In this document: one piece after another, positions 6,187 through 44,105 of the stretch
Numbering within the stretch: position 1 is the first letter of the stretch
Layout of the letters: each line of letters starts with the position of its first letter
Source: Candidatus Omnitrophota bacterium
GTDB taxonomy: Bacteria > Omnitrophota > Gorgyraeia > Zapsychrales > Fredricksoniimonadaceae
Direction of reading: 5' to 3'
Assembly (NCBI GenBank): GCA_015233375.1
Contig: JADFXW010000002.1
Coordinates: 1-44,105, forward strand
DNA length: 44,105 nucleotides
Program-made: the position numbers and the translations under genes
The notes under the pieces: model-generated
Databases searched by the model: none
Told to the model about the DNA's origin: nothing
Seen by the model: the letters and a program-made list of their open reading frames with translations, nothing else

Positions 6187-7712
6187 GCGTCAATTTCTCC
6201 ATCTGATACCTTAACTAAATTTCTTAAGGGAATGATTTTCTTGATATCCTCCATTGTAGATTGCCCTGGTATCTGATACATCAAAGAACAATACACCACA
6301 ACCCCTCTTAAGTCTGACAAATCTTTTTTCATCCTATTCATTTCTTTAAGATACGAAGAATTTGGCTTGAAAGACAACGGGTCCATTTTAAATGGAAAAG
6401 GGATTGCTTTAAGAGATAACCTGCTATAAAGCGCCATCACATTATTGGAATAAATCAACTTGGTCTTAGAAATTTTCTGGGCTTCCTTAATAATAGCTGA
6501 TTGGCTCCAAACCTTCCCATCATAAAAAAGCCCCTCATGATACCTGTTCATGCCCCATTGAAAAGCCCCAGGGACATTAATAGCAATCAAATATATCAAC
6601 AAACAAAACACAAAACAAAATTTCAAGAAATTCTGCTCTCTTACCACCGAGAATAAAATATGGACGGATCCTAAGCAAAACAACAAGCCAAAAACTTCTA
6701 TAGGAAAAAAATACCTGGTACTTTGGGCCAAGCCATCCATCCATCCAACAACAAAACCCCAAGATAATAAATAAAGACAAGAAAAAATAAATAAAACCCC
6801 TAGAAACCATATCTTTATCTCTGGGATGCCTTGAACCCTCGCGGCATCCCTATTTTTAAAAATACCCCATCCTGCGACCATCATGCCTGCTATTAATAAA
6901 ACCACGCTTGATATTGAAACTGCGAGGTGATTGGTCAGTAAGGCACAACCCTTAATGTCCGCAATTAAATAGGGATGAAAGGCGATGATGCGGTCTGTTA
7001 AATGGCCTGTGATAACCACATTGACCAGCATCCACGTCATCATGGGCAACAAAGCCGCGAAAGAAAATACCCCTGCGCGCTTGAGACCTATTGGCCAGCC
7101 TTCTCTGTTTTCTAATAACAAAATAATCCCCCCTGTTAAAACAAACGGGACACCTGCAAACCTTGTTAGACATGCTAAGGCCGCGGACATGGCAGAGGCC
7201 CAAAGAAATAAACTTCTTTTATTCTCAAGAAAATTCATCAAAAACACAAACCACAAAAGCCCTAAAAACATAAATAAAGGCTCAGACATGGCTTCTGAAT
7301 AGAAATACAAATTATCAATTTTTACCAACATCCATAAAAGAGCGGCCCAGGTCATCCAAAAGGCATTGGTGTATCTATAAATCAAAAAACCCACCAAGAA
7401 AATATTTATGCCAAAAAGCGTTGCATTCAACCATCTGGCTGCATCAACGGGACCCGGGCCGCCAAACCAATGGATAATAGCCAAAAAATAAGGAAACAGC
7501 GGCGGATAATGCTGCCAAACAAAGGTCCCCATGGTATAATCCCATCGACAAGAATCAAGGCCACTCAAACATTTGGCCATAAAGATATACATCACTTGAG
7601 GCTGCCCCACACCCCATTTCGAAGTCAGCAACATAATAAGGAAAAAGCCTGCTAAACTTAAAACAACAAGAAGAGCAAACCGTAGAAAATTTTTAAATAA
7701 AAAAGTATTCAT
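6171..7712 (-). CDS. GT-C-fold (ArnT/PMT-like) polytopic membrane glycosyltransferase, paralog of 11992..13563
   Basis: 513 aa with more than 10 hydrophobic segments and a soluble tail of about 100 aa. It aligns closely by eye with 11992..13563 (WQHYPPLFP, IHW.GGP, ARWLNA, LLYRYT, IDNLY.YS.AM.EPLF, CLTRFAG.P). Confidence 0.7.
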   Translation of the reverse strand: MNTFLFKNFLRFALLVVLSLAGFFLIMLLTSKWGVGQPQVMYIFMAKCLSGLDSCRWDYTMGTFVWQHYPPLFPYFLAIIHWFGGPGPVDAARWLNATLFGINIFLVGFLIYRYTNAFWMTWAALLWMLVKIDNLYFYSEAMSEPLFMFLGLLWFVFLMNFLENKRSLFLWASAMSAALACLTRFAGVPFVLTGGIILLLENREGWPIGLKRAGVFSFAALLPMMTWMLVNVVITGHLTDRIIAFHPYLIADIKGCALLTNHLAVSISSVVLLIAGMMVAGWGIFKNRDAARVQGIPEIKIWFLGVLFIFSCLYLLSWGFVVGWMDGLAQSTRYFFPIEVFGLLFCLGSVHILFSVVREQNFLKFCFVFCLLIYLIAINVPGAFQWGMNRYHEGLFYDGKVWSQSAIIKEAQKISKTKLIYSNNVMALYSRLSLKAIPFPFKMDPLSFKPNSSYLKEMNRMKKDLSDLRGVVVYCSLMYQIPGQSTMEDIKKIIPLRNLVKVSDGEIDAWEKT

Positions 7713-16072: not shown

Positions 16073-16143
16073 TTAAACTCCATAATAGATACCCCGCCTT
16101 AACAAACATGGTTCTGATTATCTTTTAATTCACGCATGGCGTG

Positions 16144-16323
16144 TTTATAGACACATTGAAAGTTCTTTTAGAAACATTAAGGGATTTTTCGCCAAAAGTC
16201 GTCAAGGTTTTGCGCCCATTGTTTTCTAAAGCATCCTTAGTATATTTGGAAAACAATGGGCGCAAACCGTAGACGACGGCGAAAATATCCCGTTTCTAAA
16301 AGAACTTTCAATGTGTCTATAAA
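16144..16323. repeat. Long palindromic intergenic element E1 (subfamily I)
   Basis: TTTATAGACACATTGAAAGTTCTTTTAGAAAC...loop CTAAAGCATCCTTAGTATATTTGG...GTTTCTAAAAGAACTTTCAATGTGTCTATAAA. The outer and innermost stems are perfect; the mid-stem has conserved bulges. Homologous to E2 (33979..34160). Confidence 0.9.
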
Positions 16324-16331
16324 CCTCGCTC

Positions 16332-17255
16332 TCATCCACGCCTTGACAGACGTGGAATTCTCGCTTTGTTAAAACTACGTAAAACCATATCAAGCGCTGG
16401 TGTCTTTACGCCTATCTTGTGCGCTTCCTTCACTATAGCTTGTGTTATATAATCAATTTCTGTCGGACGACAGGCTTTTATATCTTGAAATAATGTCCCT
16501 CGATGAAGGATCCCTTTGAGATCCCCATGACGGACCCTCATTATCAGCTTCATAGGATCAAAACCAAGCTTTATCCCTAACGCTCTGGCTGTAGCCTTTC
16601 CTTCTTTGACGGCATCCTGGACTAATTTCCAAATATTCTTGTCCTTGGCTAAAATATCATATCCTTGATTCGTGATAACCGGCAAAGGGTTCATCACTGA
16701 GCTAAAAATAAGTTTTGCCCATACCACGCGGTCAGCCGCCCGGAAGACCTTACAGGGCATTTGGCATTGTTTAAAAATTCTTCCCACCATGGGGGCCCCA
16801 TCACCCCCAAGATACATCTGCCCTTGATAAAAAACATCCACTTCACCTGGGGCTTTTTCTTGGCACGCCATCGTGGTGGTGCCTCGGCAAATCAGCGCTT
16901 TTTTAAACAATTTTCCTGCCCAAGAGATATCAAACAAACCATTTTGAAGGAACAAAACACATCCAGGATTAAGAAATGCCACATCCTGAAGAGCTTTTCT
17001 AAAATCCATTATTTTGGTTGCTATAATCAGGACATCAACATCCAACCCTTGTAATTGGCTGATAGACTCAACAGAGTAGATTTGTGCCTTTCTTGACTGT
17101 CCCTTTTCTTTTAAAATGATCCTATTATTCTTAAGCGCTTTTCTTATAAAAAGGTTCTTGTCAAACACAGTCACATGCACCCTTCTAGACAAAAGAGCAG
17201 CCAAACTTTTTCCCAACGCCCCTTGACCAATCACAATAATCCTAAACATCCTCAT
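16332..17255 (-). CDS. 2-dehydropantoate 2-reductase (PanE/ApbA)-family NAD(P)-dependent oxidoreductase
   Basis: N-terminal Rossmann motif IIVIGQGALGKSLAALL. The C-terminal CRPTEIDYITQAIVKEAHKIGVKTP is typical of the ApbA C-domain. The last 13 codons lie inside repeat-module sequence. Confidence 0.75.
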   Translation of the reverse strand: MRMFRIIVIGQGALGKSLAALLSRRVHVTVFDKNLFIRKALKNNRIILKEKGQSRKAQIYSVESISQLQGLDVDVLIIATKIMDFRKALQDVAFLNPGCVLFLQNGLFDISWAGKLFKKALICRGTTTMACQEKAPGEVDVFYQGQMYLGGDGAPMVGRIFKQCQMPCKVFRAADRVVWAKLIFSSVMNPLPVITNQGYDILAKDKNIWKLVQDAVKEGKATARALGIKLGFDPMKLIMRVRHGDLKGILHRGTLFQDIKACRPTEIDYITQAIVKEAHKIGVKTPALDMVLRSFNKARIPRLSRRG

Positions 17256-33933: not shown

Positions 33934-33978
33934 CTTACGCGAGAACTTCATGTTTGTTACGGCGTGGATTATAGTGAG

Positions 33979-34160
33979 GTTTATGGACGCTGTAAAAGTT
34001 TTTTCCGAAACGGGATATTTTCGCCGTCATCTACGGTTTGCAACAATTGTTTTCTAAAGTATGCTTAGTATATTTGGAAAACAATTGTTGCAAAACCTTG
34101 ACGACTTTTGGCGAAAAATCCCTTAATGTTTCGGAAAAAACTTTTACAGCGTCCATAAAC
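33979..34160. repeat. Long palindromic intergenic element E2 (subfamily I)
   Basis: GTTTATGGACGCTGTAAAAGTTTTTTCCGAAAC...loop CTAAAGTATGCTTAGTATATTTGG...GTTTCGGAAAAAACTTTTACAGCGTCCATAAAC. Its core is homologous to the reverse complement of E1. Confidence 0.9.
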
Positions 34161-34182
34161 CTGCATCACGTGGATGGAAAGA

Positions 34183-34290
34183 AAATTGGCTCTTTGAAAT
34201 TTTGAATGGGTAGCAAAGCTTAATCTTACGCGAGGCCAAGCCACCCGCTAATCTATACCATTCCTACCCATTCAAAATTCAAAAGAATCA
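34183..34290 (+). repeat. Mosaic repeat unit: T-motif hairpin enclosing junction motifs ('empty' copy)
   Basis: CTTTGAAATTTTGAATGGGTAG ... CTACCCATTCAAAATTCAAAAG form a 22-nt stem. Positions 34183-34260 are near-identical to 43907-44105, except that the latter carries an extra GC-rich hairpin. Confidence 0.85.
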
Positions 34291-34317
34291 GAAAATTAGA
34301 TAAGGACGAAGAATTTT

Positions 34318-36128: not shown

Positions 36129-36141
36129 TCTATACGCGCGG

Positions 36142-36321
36142 GGCTTGAGGGAGGGCTATTATGTTTTCAGAACAATAAGGGATTTTTGGCCAAATGTTTG
36201 CGAGGGCTTACAATAAATTTTTTCTAAATATACTAAGGATGCTTTAGAAGAAATTTATTGTAAACCGAAGCAAACGGCCAAAATATCCCGTTCAGAAAAC
36301 ATAATAGCCCTCCCTCAAGCC
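36142..36321. repeat. Long palindromic intergenic element E3 (subfamily II, inner segment inverted relative to E4)
   Basis: GGCTTGAGGGAGGGCTATTATGTTTTC...loop CTAAATATACTAAGGATGCTTTAG...GAAAACATAATAGCCCTCCCTCAAGCC. Confidence 0.9.
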
Positions 36322-36365
36322 TTGCGTGATTTACCCAATCAAAATTTTCAACAGAATTCATATAT

Positions 36366-38018: not shown

Positions 38019-38197
38019 GGCTGGCGGGAGGGCTATTATGTTTTCGGAATGGGATATTTTGGCCGTTTGCGTCTGTTACAATAAATTTTTTCTAAAGCAT
38101 CCTTAGTATATTTGGAAAAAATTTATTGTAAATCCTCGCAAACATTTGGCCAAAAATCCCTTATTGTTCCGAAAACATAATAGCCCTCCCGCCAGCC
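38019..38197. repeat. Long palindromic intergenic element E4 (subfamily II)
   Basis: GGCTGGCGGGAGGGCTATTATGTTTTC...loop CTAAAGCATCCTTAGTATATTTGG...GAAAACATAATAGCCCTCCCGCCAGCC. Confidence 0.9.
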
Positions 38198-43906: not shown

Positions 43907-44105
43907 AAATTGTGGCTCTTTGAAATTTTGAATGGGTAGCAAAGCTTAATCTTACGCGGGGCCTGTCTTGGCCGGCGTGTTAACGTGCTCCTCTTGGCGA
44001 ATGGCAACCCTATCAGCGGCCAGAAAGGGGGTTTCCCTTTACCGCTGACTTGGGCACTGGTCGTGCGCTCGTTAACACGCCGGCCAAGACACCCGCTAAT
44101 CTATA
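43907..44105 (+). repeat. Mosaic repeat unit ('filled' copy), truncated by the window end
   Basis: AAATTGTGGCTCTTTGAAATTTTGAATGGGTAGCAAAGCTTAATCTTACGCGGGG ... CACCCGCTAATCTATA matches 34183-34260 on both sides of an inserted hairpin. Confidence 0.85.
43965..44090. repeat. GC-rich 126-nt hairpin nested in the repeat unit
   Basis: A perfect 21-bp outer stem GTCTTGGCCGGCGTGTTAACG / CGTTAACACGCCGGCCAAGAC. An inner hairpin TCAGCGG..AAAGGG-ggttt-CCCTTT..CCGCTGA. Markedly more GC-rich than its surroundings. Confidence 0.8.

Follow-up and report, generated by a model that had tools for sequence, protein, structure and literature searches.

The window analysed here, a stretch of 44,105 nt, is contig C132 of an Omnitrophota MAG that comprises 1.76 Mb in 209 contigs, with 64% completeness and 42% G+C. 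It carries four copies of a palindromic repeat, E1 to E4, each of which is intergenic within one surface-glycan cluster whose genes include an MBOAT acyltransferase, GT4 glycosyltransferases, an acyltransferase-3, a ketopantoate-reductase-like gene, and a radical-SAM operon (Table 1). E1 is a 182-nt palindrome with outer arms of 33 nt that are 100% complementary and lie 116 nt apart, and its 111-nt core has an orientation that is set by asymmetric arms. On the canonical strand, the left arm of the core reads GGGAT[A]TTTTCGCC-GTCGTC-TACGG, and the right arm reads CCTTG-GACGAC-[TTTT]-GGCGAAAAATCCC, followed by a TTAAT bulge. The inner stem of E1 contains CCC/GGG pairs found in no other copy of the family. 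Its arm has a higher G+C content than any other in the family (8/18 compared to a median of 4/18), a property that is suggestive only and may have favoured hairpin extrusion; by fold energy, this stem ranks only 7th of 75.

Table 1. Positions of the repeat copies, their parts, and neighbouring features in the window.
Feature	Position	Strand	Remarks
Cobalamin riboswitch	1505–1637	−	32.3 bits, just above the Rfam gathering threshold of 31.5
E1, whole palindrome	16143–16324		A-type; arms − / loop +
E1 outer arm, left half on +	16143–16175		pairs perfectly with 16292–16324
E1 core, 111 nt	16181–16291	− (canonical orientation)	set by asymmetric arms
E1 inner perfect inverted repeat, left half	16209–16226		TTTGCGCCCATTGTTTTC on +
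E1 inverted tip, 22 nt	16227–16248	+	reads TAAAGCATCCTTAGTATATTTG on + though arms are minus
E1 inner perfect inverted repeat, right half	16249–16266		GAAAACAATGGGCGCAAA on +
E1 outer arm, right half on +	16292–16324		partner of 16143–16175
A-type conserved flank beside E1	16325–16385	−	also present left of E2
Ketopantoate-reductase-like ORF	16332–17255	−	
E2	33977–34162	+	A-type; arms + / loop +; usual arm-tip relation
Empty shell palindrome	34187–34293		adjoins E2
E3	36137–36326	−	B-type; arms − / loop −; arm-tip relation usual, whole core inverted relative to asymmetric outer flanks
E4	38019–38197	+	B-type; arms + / loop +; usual arrangement
Shell palindrome at window end	43913–44105		different ~125-nt hairpin in loop, arms 43964–43988 / 44067–44091

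The conserved flank of the repeat supplies the last ~12 codons and the stop codon (16332–16372, minus strand) of the ketopantoate-reductase-like ORF next to E1, and the repeat seems to have taken the place of the 3′ end of this gene. We also sought this locus elsewhere. The collections searched yielded neither an orthologous site nor a nearly identical strain. Homologues of the flanking reductase in the genus were at most 54% identical and none had an adjoining repeat; no other record of the exact flanking protein was found, its protein cluster being a singleton with the next relative 55% identical; and the stem pattern specific to E1 was not found in the metagenome contigs searched. Homologues of the ORF align only up to about residue 294–298 of 307. 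Beside E2, the same A-type flank is non-coding.

A family of bulged palindromic repeats

E1–E4 belong to a dispersed, intergenic palindromic repeat that is probably non-autonomously mobile and is confined to one Omnitrophota genus. We catalogued 104 occurrences, which reduced to 96 distinct copies, 22 of them in this MAG and the rest in 15 congeneric genomes and a few metagenome contigs. The 22 full copies in the MAG lie on 20 contigs. In a BLAST search of 17 genomes of the genus, the family was present in 16, with 0 to 33 matches per genome, a spread that fits recent lineage-specific bursts. The congener G043, which is 94% complete, had 0 matches and G042 had 33. Copies are almost always intergenic, and 71 of the 96 distinct copies lie between co-directional genes (48 in canonical and 23 in reverse orientation).

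The family has a ~111-nt core, perfect outer arms that vary, and conserved flanks, for a whole element of ~185 bases; the flanks reach beyond the palindrome, and the ends of the element are fuzzy. Every copy has one arm with the sequence GGGAT[A]TTTT-SGCC, followed directly by GTYNKC and T[A/T]CGG, and the other reads CCT[T/C]G, GMNRAC, a 4-nt bulge [A/T]TTT, GGCS-AAAAATCCC, and a 5-nt bulge (TTAAT, TTATT, or TGAAT). The canonical tip is either TAAAGYATCCTTAGTATATTTG (22 nt) or TAAAGNTTCTCTTYATTTG (19 nt, the commoner form in the genus), and a T·G mismatch closes both. The MAG has at least two subfamilies. A-type (E1 and E2) and B-type (E3 and E4) are told apart by their outer arms and inner stems, and two further copies in the MAG belong to neither.

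The inner arms vary between copies and match within them. The 75 copies compared have 45 distinct left inner arms, which differ on average at 4.3 positions per 18 nt, and the two inner arms of a given copy are nonetheless perfectly complementary in 36/75 and have a single mismatch in 26/75 (at most one in 62/75). In copy L114 (G050:C34, ~6908–7034), the 5×5 internal loop is now perfectly paired (GGCAAGGTTTTAC / GTAAAACCTTGCC), and one arm appears to have been rewritten from the other by arm homogenisation. Fold energy is lower on the canonical strand in 66 of the 96 copies (mean 1.7 kcal/mol), a weak bias, whereas inner-arm mismatches on that strand in 75 copies comprise 28 C·A and 8 G·T, which is opposite to the tolerance of RNA from that strand. 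Fold energy and mismatch types therefore point to opposite strands of function; many of the mismatches are shared by descent, and the C·A/G·T bias may lack meaning.

We read this apparently undescribed family as a dispersed palindromic repeat of the REP/ERIC/Correia kind. An assignment to REP elements mobilised by a RAYT was considered and rejected, as the RAYT-like gene of the MAG carries a different repeat. This gene (G000:C168:6402–7085; locus L132 1438–2121) encodes a 227-aa IS200/RAYT-like Y1 transposase (Y1_Tnp) with intact flanks, and a 25–31-nt inverted repeat particular to it, GGTGACACACGACGTAACCT, surrounds it in at least four copies and is unlike the E1 family; the second Y1_Tnp match, on C110, lies 4.4 kb from the nearest family copy. 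Integron attC sites form an array in one orientation beside an integron integrase and have R''/R' core sites RYYYAAC / GTTRRRY. The attC reading was also rejected, because the copies point either way with respect to genes, are spread across 20 contigs, and have no integrase; the GAAAC/GTTTC boxes do not fit the core-site consensus, and the only tyrosine recombinase of the MAG is on a contig other than C132. In Rfam, the repeat matched no family at gathering score, and far sub-threshold matches were to microRNA precursors only, as is generic for long hairpins. No consistent terminator signal was found in the family.

Opposite orientations of tip and arms in E1

The asymmetric arm bulges define the canonical strand of each copy independently of the tip. 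A sequence-only reading of the window had used a shared flank to place E1 on the minus strand relative to E2, and this assignment holds. The flank common to E1(−) and E2(+) is real and extends over ~45 nt of alignment; the arms of E1(−) align to those of E2(+) without gaps at 64/76 positions on the left and 73/84 on the right (137/160), whereas E1(+) requires 10 gap positions per arm (20 in total) to match at only 60/85 and 61/85 positions. In the orientation defined by its arms, the tip of E1 reads CAAATATACTAAGGATGCTTTA. This sequence matches the E2 tip at 7/22 positions directly and 20/22 when reverse-complemented, and it matches the commonest tip of this genome, TAAAGCATCCTTAGTATATTTG, at 8/22 positions directly and 22/22 when reverse-complemented, with a length of 22 in both. 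The tip of E1 is thus the exact reverse complement of the commonest tip between untouched arms, in agreement with the earlier proposal that the loop had flipped independently of the arms. The inner inverted repeat that had been described around the loop is also real and extends to 18 perfect bp. The loop is clearly asymmetric: just 8/22 positions agree between the commonest tip and its reverse complement, and 6 of these come from the AAA/TTT ends. The inversion of the E1 tip relative to its arms is therefore confirmed, in a state that rests on one assembled contig of the 64%-complete MAG.

The closing T·G mismatch is included in the inverted tip of E1 and becomes C/A in the arm orientation, and the asymmetric 5×5 internal loop that adjoins the 18-bp stem on its outer side has kept its orientation; the inverted segment is therefore 22–58 nt long (minimum 16227–16248, maximum 16209–16266). 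On the minus strand, the assembled state is marked by ...CGGTTTGCGCCCATTGTTTTCC..., where the usual state would read ...CGGTTTGCGCCCATTGTTTTCT....

E1 is the sole copy with an inverted tip among the 96 distinct copies. The usual relation of tip to arms was found in 21 of the 22 full copies of the MAG, E1 being the exception. By occurrence, 96/104 have a TAAAG...ATTTG tip in the usual orientation; 3/104 have a variant tip, [G/A]ATAG[A/T]CTCTCT[T/G]TATTTG, also in the usual orientation; 4/104 have unrelated GC-rich tips of about the same length that are assignable to neither state, three of them with the motif CTATCGCGATAAGGCATACGCGG; and 1/104, E1, is inverted. When 168 genomes of the order were searched for the exact patterns, the inverted form was returned once (E1) and the usual form 16 times (15 in this MAG, 1 in a congener). 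With a pattern that accepts either tip orientation, the 7 copies found on 6 other public genome or metagenome contigs were all usual, and no inverted tip was present among ~74 copies fetched from congeners. E1 accordingly belongs to no lineage of copies fixed in its state, and its state is not one of two that are both commonly populated. Inversion at the middle level, that of the 5×5 internal loop, occurred in none of the catalogued copies. Under equally likely states, the probability of at most one inverted copy among 22 is 5e-6, a value that is indicative only as the copies are related by descent.

The four copies in the window had been described as three nested inversion states. As a description of E1–E4 this stands, but a reading of them as 'isomeric states' of a switching system is not supported, given that the state of E1 is a singleton, the contig has no recombinase gene, and the inner repeats are not conserved. 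E3 differs from E2/E4 in another respect, in how the whole core is oriented between its flanks. The core, arms and tip together, is inverted relative to the outer flanks in 2 of 11 B-type copies, E3 and G000:C165:9111–9221, which are flanked by '...TCTATGTGCGT' on the left and 'TAAGCATGATTTACCC...' on the right. In the nine remaining B-type copies this relation is reversed. This pattern may result from in-place inversion between the 31–35-bp perfect outer arms, or the cores may instead have been inserted, in one orientation or the other, into a distinct 'shell' palindrome, GGCTCTTTGAAATTTTGAATGGGTA ... TACCCATTCAAAATTCAAAAGA. B-type elements sit in this kind of shell, an empty copy of which adjoins E2, and the shell copy at the end of the window holds a different hairpin in its loop, an arrangement suggesting that one hairpin can insert into the loop of another. 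Whichever the origin, the reversed core is a fixed property of a few copies and is no demonstration of switching.

Origin of the inverted tip

We consider it likely, from the sequence of E1 and its relatives, that the tip was inverted in place by a single historical event mediated by the inner inverted repeat, and that E1 is not a regulated switch. In an ancestor of the MAG, a nascent strand would have switched template within the perfect 18-bp inner repeat during replication and then switched back, leaving the tip of E1 inverted. Alternatively, the two inner arms of E1 could have recombined with each other, which would give the same sequence product; template switching and inter-arm recombination have identical outcomes and are indistinguishable from sequence. 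Inversion via the repeat arms is indicated by the exact reverse complement, the unchanged length, breakpoints that are hidden in the perfect repeat, and the intact outer asymmetry, and the T·G mismatch carried along with the tip places the switch points inside the stem. Only paralogous copies are available for comparison, and judged from them the change at E1 would have run from the usual to the inverted state. The inversion would be a fixed mutation, as judged from the assembled sequence. Other marks of hairpin-driven mutation are found in the family, namely arm homogenisation and the conversion of the internal loop of L114 to perfect pairing.

A contrasting explanation is that the nested perfect repeats invert repeatedly, making E1 an active and reversible flip-flop with a mixed population, possibly with effects on expression of the flanking glycan genes. 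Such behaviour would account for inversion at two nested levels (the tip in E1 and the core in E3 and the G000:C165 copy, 2/11 of the B-type) and would suit the position of E1 inside a surface-glycan gene cluster. We regard it as improbable. Frequent flipping predicts that both states should be found, whereas the states are observed at 95 to 1, and the E3-type difference may reflect insertion in either orientation into the shell palindrome. No recombinase gene was found on contig C132, and the MAG, at 64% completeness, has a single Resolvase-family match, on C175, and a single Phage_integrase-family match, on C143. The inner repeats vary between copies (45 left arms among 75, that of E1 being unique) and thus are not a conserved recombination site. 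The tip also has no conserved promoter-like site: no consistent sigma-70-like promoter was found across copies, and the sequence TTTACA-N16-TATACT, on the non-canonical strand, is present only in copies with both the 22-nt tip and a TTTACA stem and is judged to be a chance match in AT-rich DNA. On these four grounds (the ratio of states, the recombinase, the repeats, and the promoter), we do not read E1 as a switch. It would be a more far-fetched proposal still, and one to which we give very little credence, that each copy is a low-frequency, recombinase-free invertible element, that E1 is heterogeneous, and that the orientation of tip or core affects how far the surface-glycan operon transcript is read through or how stable it is; were this true, low-frequency invertible copies would constitute hairpin-based phase variation in a host-dependent bacterium.

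The sequence of E1 could also have arisen by ectopic gene conversion, in which a second copy lying the other way round in the genome paired with E1 through the palindromic inner stems and overwrote its tip. Donors with an identical tip occur in the genome in both orientations, and on the plus strand the tip of E1 reads as in E2, E4, and other copies. However, the CCC/GGG pairs unique to E1 flank the tip and leave only 9 bp per side (ATTGTTTTC / GAAAACAAT) in common with donors. Nine base pairs is very short for homologous conversion, and the local 18-bp perfect repeat is a better substrate; this limited homology makes conversion an unlikely source of the inverted tip. Palindromes commonly cause difficulty in assembly and amplification, and the inverted state is present in one contig only, such that a tip mis-set by the assembler or hairpin-induced chimeric reads might be suspected. 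We consider an assembly or library artefact very unlikely, because the 18-bp repeat is below the usual smallest k-mers and the inner stem of E1 is unique in the genome, which should prevent confusion with reads from other copies. A k-mer of at least 21 across stem and tip should reach the asymmetric internal loop and fix the orientation, and the usual state is shown by each of the 21 other copies in this assembly.

Relation to known systems

Template switching between inverted-repeat arms inverts loops in bacterial rRNA-gene hairpins and microRNA loci (Monttinen & Loytynoja 2022, PMC8794818) and, in yeast genes, acts likewise on inverted-repeat spacers (Abraham & Hazkani-Covo 2021, PMC8604942), with published loop inversions being mostly 2–8 nt (PMC8794818, PMC8604942). 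As in those cases, the segment between the perfect arms of E1 reads as the exact reverse complement of the usual tip at the same length, the arms exceed 9 bp, are perfect, and overlap both stem halves, and the event seems rare and lineage-specific, in a family that also contains homogenised arms. E1 differs from them in the size of the inverted piece (22–58 nt compared to 2–8 nt), in its location in a multi-copy non-coding repeat rather than an rRNA or protein-coding gene, and in that its ancestral state is drawn from paralogues, with 95/96 in the other state, instead of from an orthologous outgroup.

Several other systems share individual features with E1. Kelchner and Wendel, in 1996, reportedly described minute inversions at hairpins in chloroplast non-coding DNA, with loops of tens of bases and short inverted repeats, that recur without a recombinase; those inversions are in an organelle, at orthologous single-copy sites, and often parallel, whereas E1 is a single case. 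In the terminal hairpins of parvoviruses, which exist in flip and flop forms, an inner part of the hairpin is likewise inverted relative to the outer stem, but both forms arise about equally in each round of replication and at the ends of a linear genome, whereas E1 is chromosomal and internal and its family shows the two states at 95 to 1. Like fimS, hin, and shufflons, E1 has a DNA segment bounded by inverted repeats in the opposite orientation. Unlike them, it has no adjacent recombinase gene, its repeats are not conserved between copies, the segment contains no promoter or coding sequence, and inversion in 1 of 96 copies does not amount to a mixed population.

As a family, the copies resemble REP/REPIN, ERIC, Correia, RPE, and bcr1-type elements in being dispersed, intergenic, imperfect palindromes of 100–200 nt, present in both orientations, mostly inside operons, with subfamilies per genome and variable copy number among congeners. 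They differ from REP/REPIN-type elements in that no associated transposase was found in the MAG, where the RAYT-like gene is flanked by a different repeat, and from REP/ERIC-type repeats in having arms with strongly conserved asymmetric bulges and a tip sequence that is conserved genus-wide.

The inversion in E1 belongs to a known class of mutation and involves no new mechanism, although the repeat family in which it occurs has not been described in the literature. E1 provides a clean and unusually large (at least 22 nt) natural example of hairpin-tip inversion between short perfect inverted repeats. The palindromic repeats of these Omnitrophota would, on this evidence, evolve largely by hairpin-driven mutation, comprising arm homogenisation, tip inversion, and core inversion. 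Only where reads reveal heterogeneity should copies of this kind be taken for genetic switches. The conserved asymmetric bulges of the arms serve as orientation markers, and they separate a true in-place inversion from a difference in the orientation of a copy.
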